Below the pieces are notes generated by a model. The model saw nothing but the letters and a program-made list of their open reading frames with translations. It was not told where the DNA came from and searched no databases. Shown here piece by piece: positions 8,269 through 60,218 of a stretch of 64,000 nt of DNA. This stretch comes from Candidatus Saccharimonas sp. (GTDB lineage Bacteria > Patescibacteriota > Saccharimonadia > Saccharimonadales > Saccharimonadaceae). The stretch's first letter is position 1. Every line of letters begins with the position of its first letter. The position numbers were made by a program, and so were the translations under genes. The stretch lies in contig DZCW01000002.1 in the NCBI GenBank assembly GCA_022736555.1, positions 25,070 to 89,069 on the forward strand. Reading direction: 5' to 3'.

Positions 8269-8272
8269 AACA

Positions 8273-8301
8273 TTAATATAATAACACAATATCTTTGTCA
8301 A
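8273..8301 (-). promoter_or_regulatory. Putative sigma-70-type promoter of the MATCAP-like gene
   Basis: Minus strand reads TTGACA (8301-8296), a 17-nt spacer, TATTAA (8278-8273), then 4 nt and the ATG at 8268. Confidence 0.45.
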
Positions 8302-8372
8302 TTAAAACTATTGACTAAATTGACAAAAAGTTATAATATACTACAGATAATATTTACCTTAAGGTGGACGAT

Positions 8373-8831: not shown

Positions 8832-9720
8832 TGGTACCGGTAATTATTCAACTAAGCGCCTCAAAGAGGAAGCTATTTTACGTGGTCATGACGTAAAAGT
8901 CATAAAATACAAAGAATGTTACGCTTCGATCGAGCAAAGTAATCCAACTGTCAGTTATAGGGGTAGTGATCTTAGCAAATTTGATGCAATCATCCCCCGT
9001 ATCGCTTCTAGTATGACTAAATACGGCACGGCGATTGTTCGTCAGTTAGAAATGCAAGGAGTTTATACAGTTTCTAGTTCGATCGCTATTAGCCGTTCTC
9101 GCGATAAAATGCGTAGCTTGCAATTATTAGCTAAATCCGGGATTGGTATCCCAAAAACCGTAGTTTCTCGTAATACTACTGATATTGACGATCTTCTCAA
9201 CCAGTTAGGTGATATGCCTGTGATTATTAAATTGGCTCGTGGCACTCATGGTAATGGTGTAGTCTTGGCTGAAACTAAAAAGGCCGCTAAATCAGTACTT
9301 CAGGCTTTTTATCTAACTAATGATGATGGAACGAATATTCTACTACAGGAATTTATCAAGGAATCAGCCGGGACTGATATCCGTGCCTTTGTAGTTGGCA
9401 GCAGGGTTGTCGCTAGTATGAAACGGCAAAGTTTAGACGATGATTTTCGTTCAAACCTACATAAAGGCGGTGAAGGCACAACTATAAAATTAACTGAAGA
9501 GGAAAAAAAGATTGCCATTAAGGCCGCCAAAGCTATGGGGCTTAATGTTGCCGGTGTTGATCTAATGCGCAGTAGCCGTGGACCATTGATTCTAGAGGTA
9601 AATGCTAGTCCTGGATTTGGTATTGAAAAGGTTACCGGACGTAATGTTGCGGCTGAAATTATCGAATATGTCGAGATGAATGCCAAACGCCGCAATAAAA
9701 AAGACAAAGTCGGCGCATAG
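8809..9720 (+). CDS. rimK: RimK-family ATP-grasp alpha-L-glutamate ligase
   Basis: MKIAILS... start, PVIIKLARGTHGNGVVLAE, DIRAFVVG and VAGVDLMRSSRGPLILEVNASPG ATP-grasp motifs. GGGGAG RBS before the ATG at 8809. Confidence 0.85.
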   Translation: MKIAILSNGTGNYSTKRLKEEAILRGHDVKVIKYKECYASIEQSNPTVSYRGSDLSKFDAIIPRIASSMTKYGTAIVRQLEMQGVYTVSSSIAISRSRDKMRSLQLLAKSGIGIPKTVVSRNTTDIDDLLNQLGDMPVIIKLARGTHGNGVVLAETKKAAKSVLQAFYLTNDDGTNILLQEFIKESAGTDIRAFVVGSRVVASMKRQSLDDDFRSNLHKGGEGTTIKLTEEEKKIAIKAAKAMGLNVAGVDLMRSSRGPLILEVNASPGFGIEKVTGRNVAAEIIEYVEMNAKRRNKKDKVGA

Positions 9721-9749
9721 TATAGTTTTATATTATTGATATATACTAT

Positions 9750-10235
9750 ATGTATATGAATACAAAAAGGAATATTGGTACGCCACTAATAGTGTCTTGT
9801 ATTGTGTTGGGCGTGTTGGCAACATTTATGTTTGTAATACCCACCATCTTTAAGCTATCTACTAATTTGCAGCTTGGCGATGGTGCGTTTAAAGCCCAAA
9901 TGGCCTTAAAAAGTAGCGATAGGGACAAGGGGTTATTGGGTACCTCTGGGTTAGACCCAGACCAGGCTTTTTTGTTGGCATTTCCTACCGAAGACAAATG
10001 GGGTGTTTGGCCTAAGAGCACGACATTCTCGATTGATATCGTTTGGTTGAATAAGGATAAAAAAGTCATTTATATAGCCAAAAATATCTCGCCTGGTAAT
10101 TTGACTTCCGCGGTGATTAAACCGAAAACTCCAGCAAAATATATAATTGAATTTCCAGCCGGTACTGTTGATAGTGAATCTATAGATATCAACCAGACGG
10201 CGGTTTTCCAAATTAATACAGACGAAATAAAGTAA
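9750..10235 (+). CDS. DUF192-family protein with N-terminal TM anchor
   Basis: DKGLLG...AFLLAFP...FSIDIVWLNKDKKVIYI...P pattern typical of DUF192 (COG1430). Confidence 0.55.
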   Translation: MYMNTKRNIGTPLIVSCIVLGVLATFMFVIPTIFKLSTNLQLGDGAFKAQMALKSSDRDKGLLGTSGLDPDQAFLLAFPTEDKWGVWPKSTTFSIDIVWLNKDKKVIYIAKNISPGNLTSAVIKPKTPAKYIIEFPAGTVDSESIDINQTAVFQINTDEIK

Positions 10236-10236
10236 T

Positions 10237-10713
10237 ATGGATGTTTTTATAGTTTATATAGTTGTTGCTGCGGTGTTATTTATCGGATCGTTCATGGCCA
10301 AACGAAGGTTTGGTTTATTGGGGCTAGCGATAGCTGCAGGCTCTATACTGAGTGGAATATGGAGTTATGGGGTAGAACTGATGGTCGGTGGCGTAGGCCT
10401 CCCATCTGGGCCATTAACAACGGCCGTGGTTCAATCGACAATTATCATATTACCAGCCGGCGTTTTGCTATTTCATGGATATACCTATAAAACATTATTC
10501 GGCAGAGTAATTGGTGCAGGATTATTTGCCATACTAGCGACGGCTTTTCTAATTGAACCACTAGGGCATGTATTGATGCCTCACGGTTTAGGCGCTAATA
10601 TTTATAGTTGGCTAGTTGATAACCGCGATATGATTATCGGTGTTGGTTTGACTTTGGCTGTGCTCGATTTATTCACCACAAAGCCAATTCAACTAGCTGA
10701 CAAAAAGCGCTAA
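10237..10713 (+). CDS. Polytopic membrane protein, unknown function
   Basis: 158 aa with 4-5 hydrophobic helices. Starts 2 nt after the previous stop. Confidence 0.5.
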   Translation: MDVFIVYIVVAAVLFIGSFMAKRRFGLLGLAIAAGSILSGIWSYGVELMVGGVGLPSGPLTTAVVQSTIIILPAGVLLFHGYTYKTLFGRVIGAGLFAILATAFLIEPLGHVLMPHGLGANIYSWLVDNRDMIIGVGLTLAVLDLFTTKPIQLADKKR

Positions 10714-10755
10714 CATTGACAGATCACCTATAAAAATGGTACATTTTTTAGATAT

Positions 10756-10832
10756 GAGGTCATAGCTCAGCTGGTTAGAGCACCTGCCTTTTAAGCAGGG
10801 TGTCGTGAGTTCAAGTCTCACTGGCCTCACCA
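10756..10832 (+). tRNA. tRNA-Lys(UUU)
   Basis: Hand-folded cloverleaf with acceptor GAGGTCA/TGGCCTC and anticodon loop CTTTTAA. CCA is encoded. Confidence 0.95.
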
Positions 10833-10873
10833 AATTAAAATACCTATCGACCGATAGGTATTTTAATTTGGTG
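10828..10873 (+). terminator. Long hairpin terminator that includes the tRNA-Lys 3' CACCA
   Basis: CACCAAATTAAAATACCTAT ... ATAGGTATTTTAATTTGGTG, a perfect stem of 20 bp or more, followed by TTTTT. Confidence 0.7.
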
Positions 10874-10922
10874 TTTTTATTTTATTGACAGCCATTTTTA
10901 AGCTTTTTGTTATAATAATTTT

Positions 10923-12377
10923 ATGAATCTGTGGGTGTTGAGGCGTAAAGTCCATACCTCGTGGCTAATTGCTATTGGTTGCGGCGGAATATTCATTGGA
11001 GTACTTCTGTCGCAATATATTAGTTGGCCATTTATGCCGTCGATCTTTATTTTTGTATTATCACTTTTGCTAGTAGTATTGGCATTAAAGATGAGATGTA
11101 TTTATATAATACCCTTGTTGGTGATTGGTGGGATATTATTTGGATTATGGCGCGGATCAATGTCTCAGGTTGGGTTGGTGCAATTTAGACTATTTTATAA
11201 CACAACAGTATCGGTTGTTGGTAATGTCAAAGACGATGTCGACACTAATTCTACTAATCAGATAGTTATTAGGCTCGATAGTTTAGTGATTAATGATAAA
11301 CCATTGTCTGGAACTTTATGGGTGACATCAAGTAATGCCTATATTAAAAGAGGTGATGAATTATTGTTGCGGGGTGTTTTAAAAGAGGGGTTTGGTAACT
11401 TTTCGGGTGTTATCTATCGTGCCAGCATCGATCAAATTATTCATCCACAACCCGGTGATATAGCTCGTGTTGTACGTGATTGGTTCGCTGATAGTGTGCG
11501 CCGGGCAGTGCCCGATCCAGAATCTAGCCTCGGGATTGGTTATTTAGTTGGGCAACGTCGGGCCTTGCCCGCCGACTTAGCCTTAGCCTTGCAGATAGCG
11601 GGGCTTACCCATGTGGTGGTTGCTAGTGGTTATAATTTGACGATTTTGGTTCGTCTAGCGAGGCGGCTATTCGTTAAAGTTTCTAAATACCTATCGCTAT
11701 TATCGGCAACGACTATGATCGTGGTGTTTGTGGCAGTTACCGGTGTTAGCCCTAGCATGTCGCGAGCTGGGTTAGTGGCGCTACTTAGTTTGTTGGCCTG
11801 GTATTATGGCCGTCGGTTTCATCCGATTGTATTGCTGATGATTGCCGTTGCTGTGACTGTTATCGTGAACCCAAGTTATGCTTGGGGTGATTTAGGTTGG
11901 CAGTTGTCATTCTCGGCTTTTGCCGGCGTTATGATATTGGCGCCCTTATTACAGCGATACTTATTTGGTGATAAAAAACCAGGGACTATTCAGCAGATTT
12001 TAGGGGAGACTATATCAGCACAAATTGTCACAGCGCCGATATTAATAATGGCATTTGGTCAATTATCGAATGTAGCTATTGTTGCTAATTTATTAGTTTT
12101 GCCTTTAGTACCACTGGCGATGCTTTTGACGTTTATAGCTGGAATAGGTGGTTTGATATTACCGACATTTGCCACTGTTGTAGGGTTGCCGGCTACGTGG
12201 TTATTAGGCTATATGGTTAACGTGACGGAGTATCTCTCTAGCTTACCTTGGGCAACCAGTAAGATTCAATTTTCATGGTGGATGGAGGCTGGGTGCTATG
12301 TAATTATTGCTGCTATATGTTTATATCTTTGGCGAGTTACAAAGTACAATTTAAGGGAGGTTAATTTAGTTGAGTAA
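10923..12377 (+). CDS. comEC: ComEC/Rec2-family DNA-uptake channel (membrane core only)
   Basis: N-terminal OB/DUF4131-like segment followed by a polytopic competence domain (GLTHVVVASGYNLTIL, SMSRAGL). No C-terminal metallo-beta-lactamase domain fits in 484 aa. Confidence 0.75.
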   Translation: MNLWVLRRKVHTSWLIAIGCGGIFIGVLLSQYISWPFMPSIFIFVLSLLLVVLALKMRCIYIIPLLVIGGILFGLWRGSMSQVGLVQFRLFYNTTVSVVGNVKDDVDTNSTNQIVIRLDSLVINDKPLSGTLWVTSSNAYIKRGDELLLRGVLKEGFGNFSGVIYRASIDQIIHPQPGDIARVVRDWFADSVRRAVPDPESSLGIGYLVGQRRALPADLALALQIAGLTHVVVASGYNLTILVRLARRLFVKVSKYLSLLSATTMIVVFVAVTGVSPSMSRAGLVALLSLLAWYYGRRFHPIVLLMIAVAVTVIVNPSYAWGDLGWQLSFSAFAGVMILAPLLQRYLFGDKKPGTIQQILGETISAQIVTAPILIMAFGQLSNVAIVANLLVLPLVPLAMLLTFIAGIGGLILPTFATVVGLPATWLLGYMVNVTEYLSSLPWATSKIQFSWWMEAGCYVIIAAICLYLWRVTKYNLREVNLVE

Positions 12378-29363: not shown

Positions 29364-30311
29364 ATGACTAAATCCGAAATTCGCAAAGACTATTTCAAGG
29401 ACGAGTATATTATTTTTGCCCCTAGTCGTTCCGAGAGGCCGCAGACTATCGAAAATCCTGCGGTTGTTGAGACTACTGAAAACTGTCACTTTTGTCCGCA
29501 TAGTTTTCATGGCGAGACTATAACCTATCAGGATGATGGTTATGGCGATGATTGGGAAGTGATTTCGATAGTTAACAAATTTGCAGCATTAACACCAGAC
29601 AACGACAGTGCCTACGGCCAGGCCGAAGTGATCGTTGAAACGCGAAAACACGGCATGGATATAAATGATTTTTCAGTTGACCATATCGTCCGAGTTTTTA
29701 ACGCCTATATTGATAGATTTACGAATCTAAAAAACATGGACGGGATCAAACATGTCATCGTGTTTAAAAACGAAGGTGGTAAAGCAGGTGCCTCGATAGC
29801 ACATACACACTCCCAGGTTATTGCTTTGCCCATATTACCGCCTAAAGTCGAAGCTGAAGCTATGGCTTATAATAAATATTACCTCGAACACGCCATCTGC
29901 CCATATTGTGACATTATAAAATTAGAAACCGACAAGCCTAGGGTTATATGGGAAGATGAAAATCTATTTGTATTGGCACCTTATGCTAGCAACTCGCCAT
30001 ACGGAGCCTGGTTCATTCCTAAGCGCCATATTCGATTGATATCCGAACTTACTCGTAGCGAAAAAGAATCGTTTGCGATTGCCATGAAGATTGTCTTAGG
30101 AAAATTGGATGAGATTGGTGTGTCGTATAATTACTTTGTCGAAAATGCTATTAATCGCGAAGACTATCATATGCATATAAAACTAGCGCCACGTCCAAAT
30201 GTTTGGGCCGGTCTAGAGCTAGGTACTGGCGTAATCATAAATTCTATTTTACCGGAACATGCCGCGGAAATTTATCGTGGGGAGACCAAGGCTAAAACAA
30301 TTAGGTTTTAG
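29364..30311 (+). CDS. GalT-like HIT-superfamily nucleotidyltransferase/phosphorylase
   Basis: CHFCPHS zinc knuckle and AHTHSQ (H-x-H-x-Q) active-site motif. Confidence 0.7.
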   Translation: MTKSEIRKDYFKDEYIIFAPSRSERPQTIENPAVVETTENCHFCPHSFHGETITYQDDGYGDDWEVISIVNKFAALTPDNDSAYGQAEVIVETRKHGMDINDFSVDHIVRVFNAYIDRFTNLKNMDGIKHVIVFKNEGGKAGASIAHTHSQVIALPILPPKVEAEAMAYNKYYLEHAICPYCDIIKLETDKPRVIWEDENLFVLAPYASNSPYGAWFIPKRHIRLISELTRSEKESFAIAMKIVLGKLDEIGVSYNYFVENAINREDYHMHIKLAPRPNVWAGLELGTGVIINSILPEHAAEIYRGETKAKTIRF

Positions 30312-30327
30312 TGGTAGAATAGCTAGC

Positions 30328-32840
30328 ATGAGCAGTGGGCAACTAGAGGGACTTTCGTCGAGAGAGGTTAAAGCTAAACAAAAAAGGTTTGGCTATAATG
30401 AACTCCCTAACCAATCCAAAAAGAACGTTCTAAAGATAGTCTTTGGGCTATTAACCGAGCCAATGATATTTTTGCTGATGGCAACCGTCAGTATTTATTT
30501 CGTTTTAGGTGATAAAAATGAGGCTTTTTTGCTGCTTATATCATTTATCGGTATTATTTCGATCGGACTTTACCAGGAATTGAAAACCGAGAAAACACTG
30601 CAGGCCCTGAAAAATCTATCTAGCCCTATATCTGATGTCATAAGGGATGGCAAGCGAGTAACCATTAATGGTCGCGAAATTGTAGTTGGCGATATCATAA
30701 TACTTAGCTACTTAGCGAAGGTAGCCGTGTGCCAGCTGATGCTAGACTAATTTCAGCGGATAATTTTAGGGTTGATGAATCATTATTAACTGGCGAATCT
30801 GAACTGGTTGAAAAGCGAGTGCGAAACGTAACTAGCCCAAATGACAATTTATTGTTTTCAGGCACGCTAATCGTCAAAGGTCACGGTATTGCCGAGGTAA
30901 CTAGTATTAGCGTTAAGACTGAAATTGGCAAAATAGGTACTTCACTAAAATCAATTGGCGTAGAAAAAACATTGTTGCAAAAGGAAGTTAATTGAGTTGT
31001 TGGTTTTGTGGCTATTTTGGCGATTGGTGCATCGCTACTGTTGACTTTGGTGTATTGGATCGGTCGGGGAGACCTAATTCGAGGGCTTTTGGCTGGCTTA
31101 ACACTAGCGATTGCTATTCTGCCAGAGGAATTCCCAGTTGTTCTAATGATATTTTTAACTTTGGGCGCTTGGAGACTAGCTAAAAGTAATGTTTTAACTC
31201 GTAAAGCTCATACTATCGAGACTTTAGGAAGCACGACGGTTTTATGTGTCGACAAAACTGGTACTCTAACTGAAAACCAAATGCGTATAGAGAGTGTAAT
31301 TAACGCCAAGGGGTCTATTTATAATGATAGTTTTGTTGATGTAGCGGAAATAATAGAATATGGAGTTTTGGCTTCACAAAAGAACCCTTACGATCCGATG
31401 GAAGAAGCTTTTATACTGGCTGGCAAGCAAGTTTTTGGAAATATCGACAAAGTATATAACAACCAGGAGATCGTCAGAGAATACCCCGTAGAAGACGGCT
31501 GCCTGTCGGTTGCACAGGTCTGGGGATATAACGATAAACCCGAGGAAGTCGCCTTAAAAGGGGCGCCAGAGACCGTCTTTGAACTCTGTCATATTCATAA
31601 ATCTCAACGCATCAAACTCGAACGCGAAGTTAAGGGTTTGGCCGAACGTGGGTTGAGGGTGCTCGCGATAGCCCGTGGATCGATCGGCAAAGGGGAATTG
31701 CCAGACGATCGTCATGATTTTGATTTCGAGTTTTTAGGTTTAGTTGGTTTAGCTGATCCAGTTCGCAAAGAAGTACCTGCGGCGGTAAAAATATGTGAAG
31801 AAGCTGGCATCAGGGTGATTATGATAACTGGCGATTATTTAGAAATGGCTATTAATATAGCTAAACAGGCTGGTATAGCGAATCGTGGAGCCATCACTGG
31901 ATTAGAGTTTGAGCAGATGTCTAAATCGGATAGGGCCAACACCATTAAGTCCGTGTCGGTGTTTAGTCGTGTTAATCCATCCCATAAATTATTGATAGTA
32001 AATGCCCTAAAAGAGTCCGGTGAAGTAGTGGCTATGACGGGTGATGGGGTTAACGATGCACCCGCATTAAAGTCGGCGCACGTCGGTATTGCGATGGGTG
32101 GCAGGGGTACGGATGTTGCTCGAGAAGCGGCCAGTATAGTGCTGCTGGACGATAATTTTACTTCAATCGTTCATGGTGTTCGTCTAGGGCGCAAGATTTA
32201 TGATAATTTGCGCAAGGCCATGTCATATATTATTTCAGTCCATATTCCTATTGCCCTATTGTCGCTTTTGCCCGTGCTATTTAAATGGCCAATAGTTTTG
32301 ATACCAGCCCATATTGTGTTTTTAGAATTTGTGATTGACCCAAGTTGCACGATTATTTTCGAGAATGAAAAAGAAAGTCATAACATCATGAGCCGTCCAC
32401 CGCGTAAACTATCTGAGCCAATCTTTAGCAAAAGGATGGTCGTAAGTAGTATTCTGCAGGGCTTATTAGTAGCGATAATCGTCGTAGTTGCTTTTAGGGT
32501 ATTATTAGATATAGGCTGGAGCCCAGATAAAGCTCGCGGTATGACGTTTCTAATACTAGTCATTGCTAATATCTTCCTGATATTAGGTATCTCCGGTAAA
32601 CAGGCTATAGCAAATATTATTCATCGTGAGAATAAAGCCATGATAATAGTTCTATTAGTAACATCCATATCGCTAGTCTTGGTGTTCAATGTGGTGTTTT
32701 TGCGAGAGCTATTCCATTTCGAGCCATTAACTTTTAACGAAGCATCAATAGGAGTGTTGGTAGGCGCTTTGTCGATATTCGGTATTATGCCGCTTAAATA
32801 TTTGATAAATAGGGTGGCTTCTAGGGGTTTAGCGAAGTAG
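30328..32840 (+). pseudogene. Cation-transporting P-type ATPase (type II-like), disrupted
   Basis: Three track ORFs (30259-30750, 30729-30995, 31008-32840) jointly carry TGES, DKTGTLT, TGDGVNDAP and 10 TMs. A frameshift is caused by the 8-bp duplication at 30701-30716, and an in-frame TGA lies at 30993-30995. Confidence 0.85.
30701..30716 (+). repeat. 8-bp perfect tandem duplication TACTTAGC TACTTAGC causing the frameshift
   Basis: Removing one copy restores [36 protein letters not shown], the canonical A-domain sequence. Confidence 0.9.
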
Positions 32841-38002: not shown

Positions 38003-38038
38003 ATGGTCTATTATAACCGAAGCGGTTATAATAGTGAT

Positions 38039-38425
38039 ATGTTTTTAGTGGGCATCTTGTCTTGGTGGTATGGTGACGGTTTTACTAGCCGATTGCGAAT
38101 AATAAAAGAAAGGCTAGTTAGCTGTGTCGATTTTTTCTCGATAAAACTATTACTATCGACATTATTTGCGCCATTCAGACAAATCTCGGCCGGTAGCGTG
38201 TCTGGCCCCATAGGCGATCAAATACATGCTTTTTTCGATAGGCTGATATCGCGTTTTATAGGTATGTTCGTGCGGCTATTTATGATCGTGGCTGGTTTGT
38301 TTGCGATACTAGCACAAGCACTGTTCGGAATTATTCTGTTGTTATCTTGGATAATTATGCCGTTTTTGCCAGTTGTCGGTCTGATTATGATGATAATTGG
38401 CTGGGTACCGCAATGGATGATCTAA
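38039..38425 (+). CDS. Small membrane protein, overlaps the start of the Clp-like gene
   Basis: ILSWWYGDGF N-terminus and two C-terminal TMs. The track start at 38003 abuts the murT start codon, so the ATG at 38039 after a TATAAT-like box is preferred. Confidence 0.45.
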   Translation: MFLVGILSWWYGDGFTSRLRIIKERLVSCVDFFSIKLLLSTLFAPFRQISAGSVSGPIGDQIHAFFDRLISRFIGMFVRLFMIVAGLFAILAQALFGIILLLSWIIMPFLPVVGLIMMIIGWVPQWMI

Positions 38426-40845
38426 AGTTTAACTACAATAGCAGCCGTAGCCAAAAGGCTCGAATTGGTGCTTGGTTTGGCCAATTACAGTTGATATTTT
38501 TGTCGTTTTTAACATTTCTATTATTAGTTCTTGGTGTTGCTGTTGTCGTCTTTGGAGTTTCGTTAGGCTGGGTGCTAATAGGATTTTCAGTAATACCAGC
38601 TATGATTATTGAGTGGTATAGGTGTGAACTATGCCATTTGGCGATCACTAAAGACACTAGCTCAATTGACGGTATCTTGTCTGGTTCGGTTTTAGGTAAA
38701 TTATCCAAACAACCAACACCTGGTGAACTAGCCGCAATTATCAGTCAGTTGCCAGGTGGGCAGTTTATGGCGATTAGATTTGGGATTGGTCCTGGGTTTT
38801 TGCGAGAGTTAACGTCAGGTAATAGTTTTGATATTCAGTCCGTATGGCAAGAAGCTCTAGTCCTACGCAGCCAAATTGGCAGCAAAAATATCTCGGCTGC
38901 TATATTGGCAGTCGCACTTATACGTTGTAATAATAACTACAAAACACTACTTAGCCATTTACAATTAGATTTAGATGATTTGATCTGTGGGGTGCAGTGG
39001 TATGACTACTTGCGAAGTGTGATCGACCAACATAAAACCCCTAAACGAACTGGTGGTTTGGCTAGGGATTGGTCATTTGGTTGGACTCCAATATTGGATC
39101 GTTTTGCGATTAATATTAGCCAACAGGTTGAGGTTGGTGATTCATCGCTCGCGAAACGCACTACGCATACTGAATTAATTGATCAACTACTTAATATATT
39201 TAGTAAAAATGGCCGCCAAAATGCGCTTTTGGTTGGTGGTCCGGGTGTGGGTAAAACCGAAATCGTTCATGCTTTTGCTGGCAGACTGTTGGATGCGGCG
39301 GGCGATATACCAGACAACCTTAGGTTTCGTCAAATCTTTATTCTAGATTCGGCGGCGTTAATTGCAGCAGCACCTAATCGTGGTGAGATTGAACAGTTGG
39401 TGTCACGAGTCTTGAACGAAGCGTATAGCGCCAAAAATATAATCATCTGTTTAGATAATGCGCAGTTATTCTTTGAGAGTGGCATAGGTTCGGTTGATAT
39501 AACTAATATCCTTGCACCGATTTTAGGTGCCGGGAATCTACGTATGATTTTAACAATGGATGAGCAAAAGTTCTTGCAAATTAGCCGCCGTAATCCAGAA
39601 ATAGCTAATTTATTAAATAAAATTATGATACCAGAACCTAGTCGCGAAGAAACGATCGGGATTATGCAATATCAGTCGATTATGCTGGAGTTCCAAAACC
39701 GCGTGACCTATATGTATCAGTCGCTAGTCGAAGCTTACCGATTAGGCGGTCGATATGTGCATGATTTAGTTATGCCAGGGCAAGCTCTGAAATTATTAGA
39801 ATCAGCTGCGCAATACGCAACTGATGGTTTAGTTACGGCCGAATCGGTTCGTCAGGCAGTTGAAAAAACCGTGGGCGTAAAAATTAGCGTAGCGACAGAT
39901 AGTGTGGAGCGCGAGAAACTGCTAAATCTAGAAGACTTAATCCATGAGCGTATGATTAACCAAAAACGAGCCGTTAGTGTCGTTAGTGATGCCCTCAGGC
40001 GGGCTAGATCTGGTGTGCGTAACCAGAATCGACCCATCGGCACATTCCTATTTCTAGGCCCGACTGGTGTTGGCAAAACGGAATTATCCAAAGCCTTAGC
40101 TGATATATATTTTGGAGGTGAGAATCAAATCATACGCCTAGATATGAATGAGTACGCCAATAGCGGCGATATGCAACGTTTGATTGCTGACGGTGCCGAT
40201 AATCCAAATAGCCTTACGGCTAGTGTTATGAAGCAACCGTTTAGCGTAATATTGCTAGATGAAATTGAAAAAGCTCATCCCGATGTTATATCGACATTAC
40301 TACAAATGCTGGACGAGGGGATTATGCGAGATATTAAAAACCGCGAGGTGAGTTTTCGCGATGCGATCATTATCGCTACTAGTAATGCTGGTGCCGATAT
40401 AATTCGTGAATATATTGATCGAGGCTATGACGTTGAGCAGTTTGAGGATAAATTTGTCGACGAGCTAATCAGTAGCAATCAATTTCGCCCCGAATTTTTA
40501 AATCGTTTTGATGAAATCGTAATGTTTAAACCACTGAATGAGAATGAATTGTTACAAGTGGTTGATCTGATGCTAGCGGATGTTAATAAAACCATGTCGT
40601 TACAAAAAATTAGTATTGATGTCGACATCGAAGCTAAAAAATATCTGGTTAGTGCTGGTTACGACCCTCGTCTGGGGGCTAGACCGATGCGCCGAGTTAT
40701 TCAACGAGCGGTCGAAAACACCGTTGCTAAACAGATGCTATCGGGCGCCGTTAACCCTGGCGATACAATTAAGATATCGCTAGATCAAGTAAAGCAATTG
40801 ATTGACTCGAAAAATACTGCTCAACGAATGGTCGATGGTAAATAG
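38413..40845 (+). CDS. Membrane-anchored two-ring Clp/Hsp100-family AAA+ ATPase
   Basis: Two N-terminal TM helices, then LVGGPGVGKTE (Walker A1), IICLDNAQ (D-N in place of D-E in Walker B1), FLGPTGVGKTEL (Walker A2) and VILLDEIEKAH (Walker B2). No long M-domain and no IGF/L loop seen. Confidence 0.8.
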   Translation: MDDLKFNYNSSRSQKARIGAWFGQLQLIFLSFLTFLLLVLGVAVVVFGVSLGWVLIGFSVIPAMIIEWYRCELCHLAITKDTSSIDGILSGSVLGKLSKQPTPGELAAIISQLPGGQFMAIRFGIGPGFLRELTSGNSFDIQSVWQEALVLRSQIGSKNISAAILAVALIRCNNNYKTLLSHLQLDLDDLICGVQWYDYLRSVIDQHKTPKRTGGLARDWSFGWTPILDRFAINISQQVEVGDSSLAKRTTHTELIDQLLNIFSKNGRQNALLVGGPGVGKTEIVHAFAGRLLDAAGDIPDNLRFRQIFILDSAALIAAAPNRGEIEQLVSRVLNEAYSAKNIIICLDNAQLFFESGIGSVDITNILAPILGAGNLRMILTMDEQKFLQISRRNPEIANLLNKIMIPEPSREETIGIMQYQSIMLEFQNRVTYMYQSLVEAYRLGGRYVHDLVMPGQALKLLESAAQYATDGLVTAESVRQAVEKTVGVKISVATDSVEREKLLNLEDLIHERMINQKRAVSVVSDALRRARSGVRNQNRPIGTFLFLGPTGVGKTELSKALADIYFGGENQIIRLDMNEYANSGDMQRLIADGADNPNSLTASVMKQPFSVILLDEIEKAHPDVISTLLQMLDEGIMRDIKNREVSFRDAIIIATSNAGADIIREYIDRGYDVEQFEDKFVDELISSNQFRPEFLNRFDEIVMFKPLNENELLQVVDLMLADVNKTMSLQKISIDVDIEAKKYLVSAGYDPRLGARPMRRVIQRAVENTVAKQMLSGAVNPGDTIKISLDQVKQLIDSKNTAQRMVDGK

Positions 40846-41610
40846 TTAGGGTCTAAGTGTACCTGCAAATACCTGCCAAGCAAGTAGTGATTTGGCGACT
40901 AGACTTAGAATAATGTAGGCTCGTTCGCCGTATATATAATCTTTCCATGGTCCGATTTTTTTGTACTGCAAGACCATATTGATTGCGAAACAGTTAAAGA
41001 ATACAAAGATCGATACGAATATCCAATAAACGAAAGTTGGGGCGGCGCTACCATTTGCGGCACCTAGCCACATATAAAAGGCGATTACTAGCCATGGAAT
41101 TAGACCAGATAAACTGCCGATCCAAAAACTTAACCAACTAGTTTTCTTGGTTGTTTGATTGTGGACTTCCATAACCAATCCCATCAAATTCATGATAGCG
41201 GTCAGTACGAATATCATGGCGAGGCTGGCTAGATCATAAATACCAACTAGTAATGATATAGCTACCATCATTATGCTGGCAGATATCGAATATTCAATCC
41301 AGCGGGCTTTGTTGATGCCGAGTGATAAATTGCGATTATATTTTTTGTTATAAATAGTAGCAATAATCAGATGAGCGGCCGCGCATAGAAAGAAAAATAT
41401 TGCGATTAACATCGGTAACGATAAATCAAACAAGAGTTTAGTTGTCGGCTCCAGACTCTGCGAACTGGCATTAAAAGTTAGATAATTACCGCTAATAGGT
41501 AATGTGAACGCCTTGCTGAGGATTAATATTATTACTCCCTGTGCTAAATGCAAAAAACCCATCGTTAGATTAAATTTGCGTAAACTAGTTGTTGTAATTT
41601 TGTTTGTCAT
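40846..41610 (-). CDS. Heliorhodopsin
   Basis: 7-TM, 254 aa. Carries LRKFNLTMGFLHLAQG, AAAHLII, RWIEYSISASIMMV (counter-ion Glu position), and GERAYIILSLVAKSLLAWQVFAGTL (Schiff-base Lys in TM7). These match the heliorhodopsin 48C12/TaHeR pattern recalled from the literature. Confidence 0.85.
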   Translation of the reverse strand: MTNKITTTSLRKFNLTMGFLHLAQGVIILILSKAFTLPISGNYLTFNASSQSLEPTTKLLFDLSLPMLIAIFFFLCAAAHLIIATIYNKKYNRNLSLGINKARWIEYSISASIMMVAISLLVGIYDLASLAMIFVLTAIMNLMGLVMEVHNQTTKKTSWLSFWIGSLSGLIPWLVIAFYMWLGAANGSAAPTFVYWIFVSIFVFFNCFAINMVLQYKKIGPWKDYIYGERAYIILSLVAKSLLAWQVFAGTLRP

Positions 41611-41713
41611 AGTCGGATTATAACATAAGCGCTAAATAATTTTGAATATTTTAGATACTTAACCTCTGTAATGTGTTATGATTGGACGGAATATAAAACG
41701 ATTGGAGTAAATA

Positions 41714-41791
41714 ATGGCTAAGCACAAGAATTGGCATGGTGCAAATCGTAAGCGCCTTCTCAAGAAAAAACTACTAGCAAAACAGCGATAA
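41714..41791 (+). CDS. Candidate 25-aa highly basic micro-protein
   Basis: MAKHKNWHGANRKRLLKKKLLAKQR, with GGAG 7 nt upstream and a strong hairpin immediately downstream. Not in the ORF track because of its size. Confidence 0.35.
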   Translation: MAKHKNWHGANRKRLLKKKLLAKQR

Positions 41792-41813
41792 GCTGAATTG
41801 ATAAAATCATATC

Positions 41814-41855
41814 AAAATAAAATAAGCCATCCGTAGAGTTGGCTTATTTTATTTT
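41814..41855. terminator. Bidirectional hairpin between the micro-ORF and tRNA-Arg
   Basis: AAAATAAAATAAGCCA / TGGCTTATTTTATTTT, a 16-bp stem abutting the tRNA 3' end. Confidence 0.65.
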
Positions 41856-41930
41856 GGTACCCCGGGTTGGAATTGAACCAACGACCTTAGGCTTAGAAGT
41901 CCTCTGCTCTATCCACTGAGCTACCGGGGC
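41855..41930 (-). tRNA. tRNA-Arg(UCU) with a weak anticodon stem
   Basis: Good acceptor, D and T arms and anticodon loop CTTCTAA. The anticodon stem GAGGA/GCCTA has only 3 Watson-Crick pairs, flanked by G-A and A-G. CCA is encoded. Confidence 0.8.
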
Positions 41931-41975
41931 GTGATTGGATACTTATCGTGTACGTTTACCTTGGGTAGATTTTAT

Positions 41976-41991
41976 CTCAGTGGATAGAGCA
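41976..41991 (+). repeat. Inverted 16-nt copy of the tRNA-Arg(UCU) D-arm segment
   Basis: CTCAGTGGATAGAGCA is the reverse complement of 41905-41920. Confidence 0.85.
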
Positions 41992-42018
41992 AGCTTATTT
42001 TTTATTCGCTTCGCTTGG

Positions 42019-42036
42019 CACTGAGCTACCGGGGCG
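42019..42036 (-). repeat. Direct 18-nt copy of the tRNA-Arg(UCU) 5' end
   Basis: CACTGAGCTACCGGGGCG is identical to 41914-41931. Confidence 0.85.
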
Positions 42037-42130: not shown

Positions 42131-42544
42131 ATGAAGATAGTTGATAATGGACCAGCACCGATAGTAGTTGACATAGAAACGGCTACGATTGAGAATGAAA
42201 ATTATAGGACAACTATGTGGACGGGCAAGAATTTGCAAATCACTCTAATGTCGATCGACACGGGTCATGACATTGGGCTAGAAGTCCATGATACTCATGA
42301 CCAATTTCTACGTATTGAACAAGGTCGGGCAAAGATCTCAATGGGCCCTGACAAGGATAAATTAGAAACTTGGCAGGCTGGTCCTAACTACGCCGTAGTA
42401 GTACCGGCTGGTACGTGGCATAACCTGATAAGTACCGGCGATGTGCCATTAAAAGTCTACTCAATTTACGCACCGCCACAGCACCCGCACGGCACAGTTC
42501 ATGTAACCAAAAAAGAGGCTGATGCCGCCGAAGCGGACGAATAA
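42131..42544 (+). CDS. Cupin-domain protein
   Basis: GLEVHDTHDQFLRIEQG fits G-x5-H-x-H-x3,4-E-x6-G, and PAGTWHN is the second cupin motif. GGGGG RBS. Confidence 0.7.
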   Translation: MKIVDNGPAPIVVDIETATIENENYRTTMWTGKNLQITLMSIDTGHDIGLEVHDTHDQFLRIEQGRAKISMGPDKDKLETWQAGPNYAVVVPAGTWHNLISTGDVPLKVYSIYAPPQHPHGTVHVTKKEADAAEADE

Positions 42545-43907: not shown

Positions 43908-44288
43908 GTGAGAACTGGTATACTAGTTATAGTTATGGATTTAAATAAATATATCGTTAGTGATAATACAGGCAAGCCGTTTCATAGTAGCGGAATTGCC
44001 AGAATTAACAGAGGCGATAGGTTGGGCGTAGATACTAATGTATCATTTAATCAACGGCAACAAATCAACGGCAATCGACAATTAATTAATGATTATCACA
44101 GTTCTGTAATAGGTAATACTCGTAGTGTTTTGGCCGCCAGGCCAGTTAGCCCGGAAGCGATAGATAGTCGTTTAAGGGTGCCAGCTAGACAGCCAATCCA
44201 AAATCCTCGTAATACTACGCAGGGTATAACTATACCGCCACGTAGTTTTAACGAGCCTAATGCCAGAGGCTATAACCCTTACTCCTAG
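43908..44288 (+). CDS. Hypothetical small Arg/Asn/Gln-rich protein
   Basis: 126-aa ORF from a GTG start (an alternative ATG lies at 43935). No motif recognised. Its stop overlaps the murA stop in CTAG. Confidence 0.4.
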   Translation: MRTGILVIVMDLNKYIVSDNTGKPFHSSGIARINRGDRLGVDTNVSFNQRQQINGNRQLINDYHSSVIGNTRSVLAARPVSPEAIDSRLRVPARQPIQNPRNTTQGITIPPRSFNEPNARGYNPYS

Positions 44289-45814
44289 ATCTCGCGGAAT
44301 GTTTCAATATCAGCGCCTAAAGTATTTAGACGATTAGCGAAATCTTCATACCCACGGTTTATCGAATAAACATTTCGTAGTATCGAATGACCAGGTGCGG
44401 CCAGCATCGCTAGCATTATAACAACAGATGGGCGTAGGGCTGGAGGTGTTACTATATCGGCCGGTTTCCATTTGGTTGGTCCGGTAATATAAACACGATG
44501 TGGGTCGACTAGCTCGATATTAGCGTTCAATTTACTAAGTTCGGTGAAATAAATAGCTCGGTTTTCGTATGACCAGTCGTGAACCATGGTTCGGCCATTA
44601 GCCACAGTGGCAATCAATCCTAGGAAGGGCAAGTTGTCCATATTTACGCCCGGGAATGGCATACTGTGTAATTTGTCCTTGGGCGCATTTAGCTTTGAAT
44701 GGAGCACGGTGATGTCTACTAGGCGCGTTTCATTATTACGAGCCTTATATTCGTCGCTTATATTATATTGCAAACCCATGCTACTGAGGATGGATAATTC
44801 TATTTCGATGAATTCAATCGGCGCACGTTTGACGGTAATTTCAGAATTAGTGACTATACCGGCTGCGATTAAGCTCATGGCCTCGATCGGGTCTTCGCTA
44901 ATATAATATTCGACATTTTTATTAATACTACGAACACCACGGATGACTAGGGTGGTTGTTCCAATACCATCGATCTTGACACCTAATTTTTGTAAATAAA
45001 AACACAAATCTTGAACCATGTAATTTGGACTGGCATTACGGATAGTAATTGTGCCGTCGTAAAGGGCAGCGGCCATTAGAACATTTTCGGTAGCGGTATC
45101 GCTACGTTCAGTTAGTAATATGGTATGGTCGACGGTTTTTTTGGTGACAGTAGCGTTATAATACTCTGATTTGGTCTCGATACTTAAACCGAACGGTGCC
45201 AAACCAGCTAGATGGGGTTCGACAGTTCTAACGCCCAGGTTACACCCGCCAGCGAACGGTAATTTAAATTCTCGGTACTGGTGTAATAGAGGGCCAAGCA
45301 GCATGATGATCGTTCGTGTGCGTTTAGCTGAATCGATATTCATATCGTTCAGTTTTAATCTGGCTGGCGGGATAATTTCTAGATCGTTTTTATCATTTAA
45401 CCAGCGAATTTTAACGCCAATACTCTGCAGGACTTCGATAATTCGATTAACCTCTTCGATCCTAGCGACACGTCGTAGGGTTGTTGTGCCGTGGTTCAAT
45501 AAGCTAGCACAAAGTAGTCCAACCGCAGCATTTTTGCTGGTTTTTACTTCGATTTCACCGGATAGTTTTTTGCCACCATTAATACGAAAGTCGATTTTAC
45601 CTGATTGGTTCAAACTAACAAGTTCACTTGACAAAACGTCGCTAATACGGGCCAGCATCTCAAGGCTGATATTTTGTCCACCTTTTTCAATACGATTTAT
45701 AGCACTTTGGCTAGTGCTAAGCGCTTCGGCTAGCTGGGCCTGAGTTAGCCCACGTGATTGTCTGTTCTCTTGAATTAATGTACCGATTTTAACTTTGTAA
45801 TCATCATTCGTCAT
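44285..45814 (-). CDS. murA: XRE-type HTH domain fused to UDP-N-acetylglucosamine 1-carboxyvinyltransferase (MurA)
   Basis: Residues 1-65 read IQENRQSRGLTQAQLAEALSTSQSAINRIEKGGQNISLEMLARI (HTH_3-like). The MurA body follows from KIDFRINGGKKLSGEIEVKTSKNAA, with the active-site loop FAGGCNLGVRTVEPH. No internal start codon at the junction. Confidence 0.85.
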   Translation of the reverse strand: MTNDDYKVKIGTLIQENRQSRGLTQAQLAEALSTSQSAINRIEKGGQNISLEMLARISDVLSSELVSLNQSGKIDFRINGGKKLSGEIEVKTSKNAAVGLLCASLLNHGTTTLRRVARIEEVNRIIEVLQSIGVKIRWLNDKNDLEIIPPARLKLNDMNIDSAKRTRTIIMLLGPLLHQYREFKLPFAGGCNLGVRTVEPHLAGLAPFGLSIETKSEYYNATVTKKTVDHTILLTERSDTATENVLMAAALYDGTITIRNASPNYMVQDLCFYLQKLGVKIDGIGTTTLVIRGVRSINKNVEYYISEDPIEAMSLIAAGIVTNSEITVKRAPIEFIEIELSILSSMGLQYNISDEYKARNNETRLVDITVLHSKLNAPKDKLHSMPFPGVNMDNLPFLGLIATVANGRTMVHDWSYENRAIYFTELSKLNANIELVDPHRVYITGPTKWKPADIVTPPALRPSVVIMLAMLAAPGHSILRNVYSINRGYEDFANRLNTLGADIETFREI

Positions 45815-58208: not shown

Positions 58209-58580
58209 CTAAGTAATATTTAAGGCTTTTTTAACTTGTTCTAGAACCTGATTTGGTGTTAGGTTGGCTTTGACGATGTAGCTATGGATGTTTAGGGCTT
58301 TTAGTTCTTTTGGTGATTCTTCTTCGCCAAGGTTAGTTAAAATAATGACCGGGACACTTTTACCCCAGTCATTTTTGCGTATAATTTCGAGTGCTTCAGT
58401 GCCGTTCATTTCTGGCATCTGTAGATCGAGTAGTATTATGTCAGGCGAGAAGGCTTCGACCAATTCCACACCACGTTTACCGTTGTCTGCTATCTGTACG
58501 TCAAAGCCGGCGGCCTCGAATTTCATGCGATACATTTGACTAATTACTGAGTCGTCTTCGATAATAGCTATCTTTGTCAT
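58209..58580 (-). CDS. Stand-alone response-regulator receiver domain (CheY-like)
   Basis: IIEDD acidic pocket, phospho-acceptor D in ILLDLQMPEMNG, and the conserved T and K (LTN...KA). Confidence 0.8.
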   Translation of the reverse strand: MTKIAIIEDDSVISQMYRMKFEAAGFDVQIADNGKRGVELVEAFSPDIILLDLQMPEMNGTEALEIIRKNDWGKSVPVIILTNLGEEESPKELKALNIHSYIVKANLTPNQVLEQVKKALNIT

Positions 58581-58664: not shown

Positions 58665-59690
58665 ATGTCAAACACGAATCTAAAAGAAAAATTAATTGAA
58701 CTTAGTGAATTGGTCGATCCTGTGATTAAGCAGTTGCTTACGCAGGATGTTGAAAGGATGAACGCTGATCTAGCTTTTTACCAATGTAGTGTTGGTGGTA
58801 AAAAGATTAGGCCGGCGCTAGTTATCTTGAGCGGACAGGTGTTTGGTGGTGATGTCAAAGATTTAGTTTATCCGGCTGCCTCAGCCGAGATACTCCACAA
58901 CTCAACCTTAATTATCGATGACATTATAGATCATTCAGAATTTAGGCGAGATGAGCCGACTTGTTGGAACAAATTCGGAACGTCAATTGCGGAATGTAAT
59001 TCTTTTACATATGTCGCATCTGTTTTTGCTGGTTTGACGCATGTCAATAATAGTTCAAAATTAGTTGACCTATATAGCACTACATTGAAAATAATTGTTG
59101 ATGGTGAAATCAAAGACATATTATTTGAACGTTCTGGCCGAGAAGATGAAAAATATGTCGTCGAGCATAGGTATAAAAACATTACCAAAGACGATTATTT
59201 TGAAATGATCAGTAAAAAAACAGCGATATTATTGCAGACATGTTGCCAGGCCGGTGCTATATGTGCCGATGCTAGTCACGAGCAGGTTGAATTAATCGGT
59301 AATTTTGGTTTTGATTTGGGTATGGCTTTCCAGATACGAGATGACATATTAGACATATTTGGTGATGAAAAAGAGTTTGGTAAAAAAATCGGTAAGGACA
59401 TCATAGAAAAAAAGATGGGTAATTTTGTTATCCTATCGGCAATTGACCAACTTGATGAAAAAGGTAAAGGTACGCTACGTAATATACTAGAATCTTCTAA
59501 CGAAGTTTCGGATGAAGATATTGCAACCGTAACGTCGTTAATCGAGACGACTAACGCTAAAAAAGATGCCGAAGATGTTGCTAATTTATATATTCAGGAT
59601 GCTTCATGGTTATTGGCCAAGTTACCACAAAACGAGTATAGTGAGCAACTTGGAGCGATCGCAAAATATATTGTCGATAGAGAAAAATAA
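58665..59690 (+). CDS. trans-Polyprenyl diphosphate synthase (chain length unresolved)
   Basis: FARM LIIDDIIDH and SARM FQIRDDILD. Residues -4/-5 before the FARM are Thr/Ser, not aromatic. Confidence 0.85.
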   Translation: MSNTNLKEKLIELSELVDPVIKQLLTQDVERMNADLAFYQCSVGGKKIRPALVILSGQVFGGDVKDLVYPAASAEILHNSTLIIDDIIDHSEFRRDEPTCWNKFGTSIAECNSFTYVASVFAGLTHVNNSSKLVDLYSTTLKIIVDGEIKDILFERSGREDEKYVVEHRYKNITKDDYFEMISKKTAILLQTCCQAGAICADASHEQVELIGNFGFDLGMAFQIRDDILDIFGDEKEFGKKIGKDIIEKKMGNFVILSAIDQLDEKGKGTLRNILESSNEVSDEDIATVTSLIETTNAKKDAEDVANLYIQDASWLLAKLPQNEYSEQLGAIAKYIVDREK

Positions 59691-60218
59691 ATGGCAGAAG
59701 TAGTATTAGTTGATAATCAAGATAATGAAGTCGGTACAAAAGACAAGATCCAGGCGCACTTAGGCGAAGGTGATCTTCATCGTGCATTTACGGTATTAGT
59801 GTTTAATGAAAAAGGTGAAACCTTGGTCGCTCAGAGAAGCGCTGATAAAATGTTATGGCCTTCGTTTTGGGATAATACCTGTGCTAGCCATCCATTGCCA
59901 GGCGAAGGTTATGTCGAGGCGGGTGAGCGCAGACTAATGGAAGAATTAGGCTTTACTTGTGATCTAGCTGTGGTTGACTGTTTTCAATACAAAGAGCGAT
60001 TTGGGGATGTGGGTTCGGAAAATGAGCTATGTACAACACTAACAGGCGATTATAATGGGGAAGTTCAGCCCGTAGCTAGCGAAGTTTCGGACTATAAATG
60101 GATGGGTATTGGCGAATTGAAAAGCGACATGATCAAAAACCCAGATATATACACAATATGGTTTAAAATAGCGCTGGACAGGCTGATCGAGCAAGGCAAA
60201 ATAATACAGAAGGACTAG
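59691..60218 (+). CDS. idi: Isopentenyl-diphosphate delta-isomerase, type 1 (Nudix fold)
   Basis: LHRAFTVLVFN, WDNTCASHP (catalytic Cys) and RRLMEELG. Starts on the nucleotide after the synthase stop. Confidence 0.85.
   Translation: MAEVVLVDNQDNEVGTKDKIQAHLGEGDLHRAFTVLVFNEKGETLVAQRSADKMLWPSFWDNTCASHPLPGEGYVEAGERRLMEELGFTCDLAVVDCFQYKERFGDVGSENELCTTLTGDYNGEVQPVASEVSDYKWMGIGELKSDMIKNPDIYTIWFKIALDRLIEQGKIIQKD

Follow-up and report, generated by a model that had tools for sequence, protein, structure and literature searches.

The 64,000-nucleotide stretch analyzed here, referred to throughout as the window, lies on contig DZCW01000002.1 of a Candidatus Saccharimonas sp. genome. Its minus strand carries a gene for a heliorhodopsin (HeR), whose open reading frame (ORF) and principal active-site codons are as follows.

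40846..41610, minus strand: HeR gene, 254 residues plus a TAA stop, with an ATG start, seven transmembrane (TM) helices and a beta-hairpin in the A-B loop (ORF, profile and structure matches)
40891..40893, minus strand: codon of K240, the predicted retinal Schiff-base lysine, in the SLVAK motif of TM7 (alignment; lysine in 120/120 relatives)
41293..41295, minus strand: codon of E106, the predicted Schiff-base counter-ion, in the RWIEYS motif of TM3 (alignment; glutamate in 120/120 relatives)

Judged from profile matches, alignments and a structural model, the product of this gene is a genuine heliorhodopsin with the full signature, fold, topology and active-site set of the family. The 254-residue protein matches the Pfam family Heliorhodopsin (PF18761) at 328 bits (cut-off 26.7, E=4e-98), covering profile positions 1-242 of 242, and the NCBIfam equivalog NF038020, 'heliorhodopsin HeR', at 334 bits (cut-off 100, E=4e-100), covering positions 1-244 of 244. 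The nearest solved structure is that of TaHeR (PDB 6is6, E=6e-80), with 53% identity across 246 aligned residues, and HeR 48C12 (6su3) is matched with E=1.6e-52. Identity to the heliorhodopsin chain of 9ljj is about 41%; this entry is described as a nanobody-bound heliorhodopsin, and its matching E-value and aligned range lead us to treat it as 48C12 itself or a variant nearly identical to it. Foldseek gives 37-38% identity for the 48C12 entries 6su3, 6su4 and 6uh3.

An AlphaFold2 model of the protein was built from 43 relatives and reached a predicted local distance difference test score of 85.3 and a predicted template modeling score of 0.81. Its Foldseek TM-score is 0.88-0.92 to TaHeR (7u55 and 6is6), 0.83 to 48C12 and at most 0.61 to type-1 rhodopsins. 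The model predicts helices at residues 7-31, 65-84, 101-121, 127-154, 159-185, 192-217 and 225-248, together with two strands (36-47 and 52-64) that would form a beta-hairpin spanning residues 36-64, and a loop helix at 88-96. The hairpin and the loop helix match the two traits described as distinctive of heliorhodopsins, namely an A-B loop needed for dimerization and a structured helix in the B-C loop (PMC9385722).

The residues expected around the chromophore are all in place. The motif LRKFNLTMGFLHLAQG holds H21 (H23 in TaHeR), AAAHLII holds H80 (TaHeR H82, 48C12 H80), RWIEYSISAS holds E106, which corresponds to the counter-ion E108 of TaHeR and E107 of 48C12, and SLVAKSLLAWQ holds S236 and K240 (TaHeR S234 and K238, 48C12 S237 and K241). 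Residue conservation was counted over the 120 closest database relatives of the window HeR, and H21, H80, E106, S236, K240, N100, Y107, E148 and W245 are each unchanged in 120/120. From our own reading of the sequence and the pairwise alignment, N14, Q24, R103, S110 and E229 correspond to N16, Q26, R104, S111 and E230 of 48C12, while E148 and W245 map to its E149 and W246; all seven are invariant in alignment A1. They belong to the hydrogen-bond network that has been implicated in proton relay and signaling in 48C12 (PMC9726877).

An earlier note, made from the letters of the DNA, had called this protein a heliorhodopsin on the strength of four motifs. All four lie in the 254-residue minus-strand ORF, and the assignment is borne out by the profile matches, the TaHeR alignment, the AlphaFold model, the residue set and the charge topology described below. 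Of the checks proposed in that note, the alignment to 48C12 and the Thermoplasmatales HeR and the structure prediction were run, and family, fold and residues agree. The note had also named the lack of a TM7 lysine or of a counter-ion glutamate as evidence that would speak against its claim; K240 and E106 align at these two sites and are present throughout the relatives counted.

Lysine and arginine residues number 8 (12 when the helix ends are included) in the N-terminus and the B-C, D-E and F-G loops, compared with 3 on the other side of the membrane. Because the positive charges concentrate on the N-terminal side, the N-terminus is predicted to be cytoplasmic and the C-terminus outside, which is the inverted topology of heliorhodopsins. 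The lateral fenestration, whose positions in TaHeR and 48C12, together with those of the carotenoid site, were defined in bioRxiv 10.1101/2025.11.27.691015, also has its counterpart here. Residues F162, S166, G169, F205, N206 and A209 align with TaHeR Y164, C168, G171, F203, N204 and A207, and G169 and F205 are invariant among the relatives. By alignment, the window HeR keeps the residues proposed to let in retinal or carotenoid from outside.

Comparison of the gene with its homologs indicates that it is maintained. Between the window HeR and its nearest relative, in locus L007 (related loci are cited by such handles), amino acid identity is 96% and the ratio of non-synonymous to synonymous substitution (dN/dS) is 0.027. 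In nine further HeR copies the proportion of synonymous differences (pS) is saturated at 0.75-0.91, with a proportion of non-synonymous differences (pN) of only 0.08-0.16. The G+C content of each HeR copy tracks that of its own host genome over a range of 0.31-0.45, and the window gene stands at 0.383 against a window mean of 0.407. The low dN/dS, the low pN and this tracking together argue that the gene has been kept by selection and is not a recent arrival, and the window HeR is under strong purifying selection. Recent horizontal acquisition was considered and is not supported, given the G+C content close to the window mean, the tracking of host genomes by the homologs and a promoter of native style.

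These data also bear on whether the gene could be a decaying passenger whose apoprotein is never loaded with retinal. Such a reading draws on its location in a hypervariable slot beside tRNA fragments, on there being no chromophore pathway in sight and on the presence in the window of a decaying P-type ATPase gene with two frameshifts. Against it, the ORF is intact at 254 residues in every relative examined, the catalytic residues are invariant in all 120, dN/dS is 0.027, pN does not exceed 0.16 despite saturated synonymous sites, and the promoter geometry is conserved. We regard decay as extremely improbable, and a pseudogene or idle apoprotein was rejected on the basis of dN/dS and residue invariance.

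The HeR is native to a freshwater-lake genome of the Saccharibacteria (Saccharimonadia, candidate phyla radiation, CPR), in agreement with the 'CPR-like genome' of the earlier note. A scan of GTDB species representatives with the neighboring ATPase returned almost only Saccharibacteria, the closest being a lake metagenome-assembled genome (MAG), 'Candidatus Saccharibacteria bacterium ELA327' (L007), at 95% identity, and backbone synteny extends down to the oral Candidatus Nanogingivalis. The identical HeR protein is present in NCBI, JGI and Logan, and the locus recurs on one contig each from Logan (SRR1560064) and JGI (TB_PC08_64DRAFT). Relatives at 74-98% identity, one of them at 96%, carry the NCBI annotation 'heliorhodopsin HeR [Candidatus Saccharibacteria / Saccharimonadales bacterium]'. 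The gene order GatD-MurT-140-residue TM protein-ATPase is common to most of the loci scanned (L007-L017 and L019). The pair formed by the TM protein and the ATPase, and a gene fusing a helix-turn-helix (HTH) domain to MurA, persist as far as Candidatus Nanogingivalis, in which GatD and MurT were not detected within the fetched stretch. Other window content fitting Saccharibacteria comprises type IV pilus genes, phosphoketolase, acetate kinase, ComEC, MurT/GatD and the HTH-MurA fusion.

Upstream of the HeR start codon lies a compact promoter-like sequence.

41617..41646, minus strand: promoter-like site TTCAAA-18-TGtTATAAT, with the -10 element ending 6 nt before the HeR ATG (consensus scan)

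No Shine-Dalgarno sequence precedes the ATG. Taken with the position of the -10 element, only 6 nt from the start codon, this suggests that the HeR mRNA is probably leaderless. An extended -10 (TGnTATAAT or TATAGT) at the same 6-nt spacing was seen in 6/6 HeR loci examined, two of which are in unrelated contexts, and the HeR therefore appears to carry its own extended -10 promoter with it. At least 12 other window genes share the layout of a -10 close to the start, which makes a leaderless-type promoter the native style of this genome.

The same pattern could be followed across the window as a whole. A TAnnnT hexamer ends 6-8 nt before the start codon in 26/69 window starts, and an SD-like (Shine-Dalgarno) motif is present in 23/69. 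TATAAT-like hexamers at this distance, with no Shine-Dalgarno sequence, precede for example the starts at 10923, 15478, 17101, 21149(-), 38002(-), 50806 and 51900, and other window genes have clear GGAG/GAGG sites. Judged from these sequence patterns, many mRNAs of this Saccharibacteria genome appear to be leaderless.

The surroundings of the HeR gene are set out below, from the gene facing its stop codon to the conserved backbone on the far side.

38413..40845 (longest ORF from 38347), plus strand: membrane-anchored ClpB/ClpA-like double AAA+ ATPase (Pfam AAA_2, ClpB_D2-small, AAA)
41714..41791, plus strand: micro-ORF of 25 residues, very basic (MAKHKNWHGANRKRLLKKKLLAKQR), with a GGAG Shine-Dalgarno sequence, divergent from HeR (JGI gene call in L002)
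41810..41859, no strand assigned: AT-rich hairpin with a 20-nt stem, abutting the 3' end of tRNA-Arg (inverted repeat; slot junction)
41855..41930, minus strand: tRNA-Arg(TCT), anchor of the slot, 3' end facing HeR (ARAGORN; Rfam tRNA 64 bits)
41973..42036, no strand assigned: fragment copies of the tRNA-Arg, namely an inverted 19-nt D-arm copy (41973-41991) and an exact 18-nt direct copy of the 5' end (42019-42036) (repeat search)
42131..42544, plus strand: Cupin_2 protein, part of the conserved backbone beyond the slot (Pfam)

Comparison of related genomes places HeR as cargo in a hypervariable slot, bounded on one side by the core gene for the ClpB-like ATPase and on the other by the 3' end of tRNA-Arg(TCT). 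This tRNA occupies the same place in the backbone in L004, L005, L008-L010, L012, L013 and L019, and the Cupin_2 gene is syntenic in L004, L005, L009, L010, L013, L019, L029 and L031. Between these anchors the content varies widely. The slot is empty in L013, where it measures 32 nt, and it holds 1.1-3.6 kb of unrelated cargo in L008, L009, L010, L012 and L019. In the window, L007, L004, L005, L029 and L031 it contains HeR and one variable neighbor. The cargo comprises an HD-domain protein resembling the one in L004, a putative winged-helix or PadR-like regulator, putative Nudix, HAD-type and histidine-phosphatase-type hydrolases, components of an ATP-binding cassette (ABC) transporter, a TM protein and an aspartate carbamoyltransferase-like protein, labels that come from reading the translations, with no family scan. 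Placement in this slot explains both the stop codons without spacing and the tRNA debris.

The hairpin beside the tRNA gives an indication of how the slot is remodeled. This 45-nt hairpin is duplicated in ELA327 (L007 8462-8506 and 9313-9357), as direct copies flanking an insertion of about 0.8 kb that carries two genes, for a PadR-like regulator and a small DUF protein; at the ATPase, ELA327 is 95% related to the window. A clean cassette insertion or deletion thus separates two near-identical genomes, which suggests that recombination at the slot uses the hairpin as its junction. No further copy of the tRNA-flanking hairpin is present in the 64-kb window. An Rfam search near HeR with permissive thresholds returned only tRNAs and sub-threshold noise, and no structured RNA or riboswitch.

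The ATPase and HeR genes converge with 0 nt between them, the TAG of the former occupying 40843-40845 and the minus-strand TAA of the latter 40846-40848. HeR is monocistronic, because the neighbors on both sides lie on the opposite strand. Zero-gap convergence with a Clp-like ATPase, a monocistronic gene, and a micro-ORF and tRNA-Arg with 'rearrangement scars' had all been proposed from the letters, and each is seen here, the scars being the two tRNA fragment copies. For the ATPase, the ATG at 38413 (an 810-residue gene call) is a more probable start than the TTG at 38347, and its NCBIfam ClpB/ClpA matches fall far under the equivalog cut-offs. It is a core gene of the Saccharibacteria, found in at least 15 genomes with or without HeR.

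This contiguity raises the question of whether HeR is coupled to the ATPase, as a light-controlled unfoldase or through antisense interference at the 0-nt junction. The window, L007, L004, L005 and L031 all show the convergent arrangement, with spacings from -4 to +8 nt, no intrinsic terminator or terminator-like site was found at the junction, and both products are membrane proteins. However, the core ATPase stands in the same backbone without HeR in L008-L020, with the slot empty in L013. In L029 another ORF stands between the two genes, and HeRs of the same clade, 75-85% identical, are found in unrelated contexts (L003, L006, L028, L030 and the P0082 contig). The variability of the slot argues that the adjacency is positional rather than functional. 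Coupling is very unlikely in our view, and a functional link was rejected, the ATPase being core and HeR optional at this site.

Two further observations concern these neighbors. The ATPase has an N-terminal transmembrane region, and it is always preceded and overlapped by a multi-TM protein of 128-140 residues (38003..38425, plus strand, in the window), the pair being conserved from lake Saccharibacteria to oral Nanogingivalis. The micro-ORF is 96% identical in L007 (8362..8436) and 64% identical over its full length in L017 (11143..11217), where the ATPase is only 56% identical, and it probably encodes a genuine small protein. Searches of Pfam and NCBIfam gave no family for the 25-residue micro-ORF, the 140-residue TM protein or a 234-residue protein.

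Outside the slot, members of the same HeR clade occupy unrelated contexts. In L003 (85% identical; 7001-11491) and on the P0082 contig (76%) the HeR gene is directly beside two half-size ABC exporter genes, each encoding ABC_membrane and ABC_tran domains, with HeR upstream of the pair in one locus and downstream in the other. In L030 it stands with SDR, DUF2177, DUF1295 and TerC genes, and in L028 it adjoins a serine recombinase. ABC, SDR, DUF2177 and TerC are among the recurrent classes of HeR neighbor reported by Cho et al. 2024 (PMC11109279), who also showed that an actinobacterial HeR up-regulates an ABC exporter in a light-dependent manner. A partner gene adjacent to helR and co-oriented with it is present in L003 and on the P0082 contig (the ABC pair) and in L030 (SDR, DUF2177, TerC), and there is none at the window locus. 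The search for conserved neighbors that the earlier note had advised was run across the related loci, and no partner gene is universally conserved. The only recurrent candidate for a partner in the HeR clade is the heterodimeric ABC exporter pair, which two other lineages have and this window lacks. As a separate observation, large serine recombinase genes lie 1.3-5 kb from HeR in L028 (1505-3214) and L005 (12641-14386), consistent with mobility of the surrounding segments.

To judge the origin of the chromophore we considered the isoprenoid genes of the window, which are the following two.

58665..59690, plus strand: polyprenyl diphosphate synthase (Pfam polyprenyl_synt, 189 bits)
59691..60218, plus strand: type-1 isopentenyl diphosphate isomerase, idi (NUDIX; NCBIfam NF002995, 139 bits, cut-off 127)

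They lie 17 kb from HeR. The Pfam scan took in almost all window ORFs of at least 90 residues, other than DnaK, DnaJ, RuvA/B/C, RecA, PilB, an RNase Y-like protein and alanine racemase, and within the 64 kb it found no SQS_PSY, Amino_oxidase, lycopene cyclase, BCD/Blh or bac_rhodopsin family. Both earlier statements, that blh, crtB, crtI and crtY are missing from the window and that a polyprenyl synthase and idi are the only related genes, 17 kb away, therefore hold, the latter at 58665..60218. The polyprenyl synthase falls under every NCBIfam equivalog cut-off (93 against 460 bits for CrtE). No blh or crt gene was found in the 4.5-7 kb fetched on each side of 10/10 related HeR loci.

Published work points the same way. 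Jaffe et al. 2022 (PMC9296517) found no blh in rhodopsin-bearing Saccharibacteria MAGs that are 79-98% complete and proposed that Actinobacteria hosts supply the retinal; those MAGs also carry HeRs (Chiriac et al. 2022, PMC9166423). The TaHeR host, too, is reported to be without retinal synthesis, with the lateral fenestration proposed as the entry route (summarized in PMC9385722). With no pathway in the window, no blh in published rhodopsin-bearing Saccharibacteria and a conserved fenestration, we infer that retinal is most likely taken from the host or the surroundings, for example from retinal-producing Actinobacteria. The suggestion in the earlier note that the chromophore comes from a host or partner is thereby supported, by the window free of retinal genes and the retained fenestration residues.

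Alternatively, the cell could make its own retinal from genes outside the window, the 'missing pathway' then being an artefact of sampling. The window covers 64 kb of a genome of about 0.8-1 Mb, it does hold idi and a polyprenyl synthase not assigned to a product chain length, and blh neighbors some HeRs in other phyla (PMC9385722). Set against this are the flanks of the 10 related HeR loci, which hold no blh or crt gene, the absence of blh from the MAGs of PMC9296517 that also carry HeRs (PMC9166423), and the score of the synthase below the CrtE cut-off. Moreover, Saccharibacteria need polyprenyl carriers for peptidoglycan, and MurT/GatD, MurA and MurB are encoded in the window. We consider endogenous synthesis improbable.

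By analogy with TaHeR, at 53% identity, and with 48C12, all-trans-retinal would be bound covalently at K240, with E106 as the counter-ion. Light would then move the Schiff-base proton to a cluster of E106, H80 and H21, with no release to the bulk. If the homologs are a guide, the long-lived photoproduct of a slow photocycle would not act as an ion pump but would signal to a partner protein through its conformation. We rank this role as a sensor or regulator well above ion transport, pure antenna function or light harvesting, and coupling to the ATPase. A bona fide native HeR, acting as a sensor or regulator with external retinal and carried as a slot cassette, is as a whole probably the best explanation of the locus, and we hold it with good confidence.

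A different function has to be weighed against this, in which the protein would be a two-chromophore harvester with an exogenous xanthophyll antenna bound at the fenestration, an idea put forward for HeRs in general, a proton conductor like the viral V2HeR3, or both. An aromatic residue at 162 and G169, F205, N206 and A209 are conserved as in bioRxiv 10.1101/2025.11.27.691015, one viral HeR does transport protons (PMC9448325), and Saccharibacteria are monoderm-like and in contact with carotenoid-producing hosts. The viral transporter clade is distant, however, and the carotenoid antenna was proposed in a preprint on the strength of docking and bioinformatics. Moreover, an antenna alone defines no output. 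The TaHeR structure paper reportedly found no light-induced pH change. The same is stated for heliorhodopsin in a passage of PMC9726877 that cites the original 48C12 report. Harvesting or transport of this kind is thus unlikely, and the sensor or regulator role remains the preferred one.

Several points nevertheless weigh against the preferred explanation. The absence of a retinal pathway covers 64 kb only, and retinal genes may lie elsewhere in the genome. Retinal binding, absorption, photocycle and the lack of ion transport are all extrapolated from homologs that are 41-53% identical. As a lineage-specific difference, position 76 is cysteine in the window HeR and in 9/120 relatives, and serine in 48C12 and TaHeR. 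In both of these the serine donates a hydrogen bond to the counter-ion, and in 48C12, which absorbs at 551 nm, Ser76 shifts the maximum by about -9 nm (PMC9726877), so that spectral or kinetic details may differ here, with at most a small effect. The leaderless status of the mRNA is drawn from sequence geometry alone. Finally, this lineage has no candidate transducer beside the gene. The 64-kb window contains neither a histidine kinase nor a glutamine synthetase, a photolyase or an ABC pair, and its sole response-regulator gene (58209..58580) lies 17 kb from HeR.

Among characterized proteins TaHeR (from the Thermoplasmatales archaeon SG8-52-1; 6is6, 7u55, 7clj) is the closest parallel. It shares the H/H/E/S/K set, SLVAK, the fenestration, a methionine (M212 in the window HeR) where 48C12 has Q213, and a host reported to be without retinal synthesis (PMC9385722). 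It differs in its archaeal rather than bacterial (CPR) host and at three positions (S78, Y164 and C168, where the window HeR has C76, F162 and S166), and the E-F loop of the window HeR is 4 residues longer. The actinobacterial 48C12 (6su3, 6uh3) has the same fold, counter-ion, histidines, Ser-x3-Lys arrangement and hydrogen-bond network residues (PMC9726877), and differs at about 41% identity and in having S112, Q213 and S76 in place of A111, M212 and C76. From the Saccharimonadia and CPR HeRs of PMC9166423 there is no essential difference; clade, SLVAK motif and freshwater-lake habitat are the same.

Three regulatory systems offer a functional comparison, namely OcHeR with the ABC exporter OmrDE (PMC11109279), AbHeR with glutamine synthetase (PMC9529153) and TfHeR with photolyase (PMC9769723). 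Light-dependent modulation of a partner is the mode that the window HeR probably shares with them, and the HeRs of L003 and the P0082 contig resemble OcHeR-OmrDE in standing beside a heterodimeric ABC exporter pair. In contrast, none of these partner genes adjoins the monocistronic window HeR or shares an operon with it. The SacRs, which are type-1 rhodopsins of Saccharibacteria and DTS proton pumps (PMC9296517), are alike in host group, habitat and the external retinal inferred for them, which they take up fast through a lateral opening (PMC9296517). The same study reports rapid retinal binding by heliorhodopsin, at a pace comparable to that of the SacRs, for which saturation came within 30 s. 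The SacRs belong to another rhodopsin family, with opposite topology and proton pumping, and no SacR gene is present in the window.

The finding itself is correct but was already known. In a screen of 1,326 CPR genomes, Chiriac et al. 2022 (PMC9166423) counted 98 HeRs. Saccharimonadia accounted for 80 of these, and SLVAK was one of the most frequent motifs in TM7. Saccharimonadia HeRs and the idea of exogenous retinal were thus both published in 2022, in PMC9166423 and PMC9296517, and the NCBIfam equivalog names such proteins automatically. The TaHeR structure paper, too, reportedly proposed a supply of retinal from outside. Our literature search found no experimental characterization of a Saccharibacteria HeR. 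The additions made here, which we did not meet in the literature examined, are incremental: the analysis of the genomic slot, the conserved leaderless promoter and the analysis of selection.

The physiological role of heliorhodopsins is still unsettled in general, and Saccharibacteria are an attractive test case, with tiny genomes, dependence on a host and an apparent inability to make the chromophore. To this the locus adds context, showing HeR as an accessory yet strongly conserved and self-promoted cassette in a recombination-prone slot, with no fixed partner gene. This pattern makes it less likely that the group relies on one transducer encoded in an operon with HeR, and it points to candidates such as the ABC exporter pair of the sister lineages. 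More speculatively, if Saccharibacteria cannot make retinal, the apoprotein could become photoactive only once loaded through its lateral fenestration with retinal, perhaps with a xanthophyll as well, from the host membrane. It would then act as a coincidence detector, responding when the cell is illuminated while it is attached to a host that produces pigment, and would relay this state to membrane machinery such as a heterodimeric ABC exporter or the neighboring AAA+ unfoldase, with spread of the leaderless cassette via the tRNA-Arg slot as the route of its gain and loss in lake Saccharibacteria. To this extended proposal we attach little probability.

Three observations stand apart from the main subject. 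A HeR 77% identical to that of the window is labeled in NCBI as belonging to a Thiobacillus sp. MAG, a diderm, on a 10.9 kb contig (P0087). To our knowledge HeRs are reported absent from diderms in published surveys, and for this reason the 'Thiobacillus' HeR is probably on a mis-binned Saccharibacteria contig. The HTH-MurA fusion consists of an HTH_3 (XRE-type) domain joined to a full-length enzyme of the MurA/EPSP-synthase fold (509 residues; 44285..45814, minus strand), and is 63-87% identical across the Saccharibacteria loci examined. Lastly, the P-type cation ATPase is split over three frames of the plus strand, 30259..30750, 30729..30995 and 31008..32840, which encode its N-terminal domain, an actuator segment (PADARLISADNFRVDESLLTGESE) and the hydrolase/C-terminal part, and it represents either a pseudogene with two frameshifts or an assembly error.

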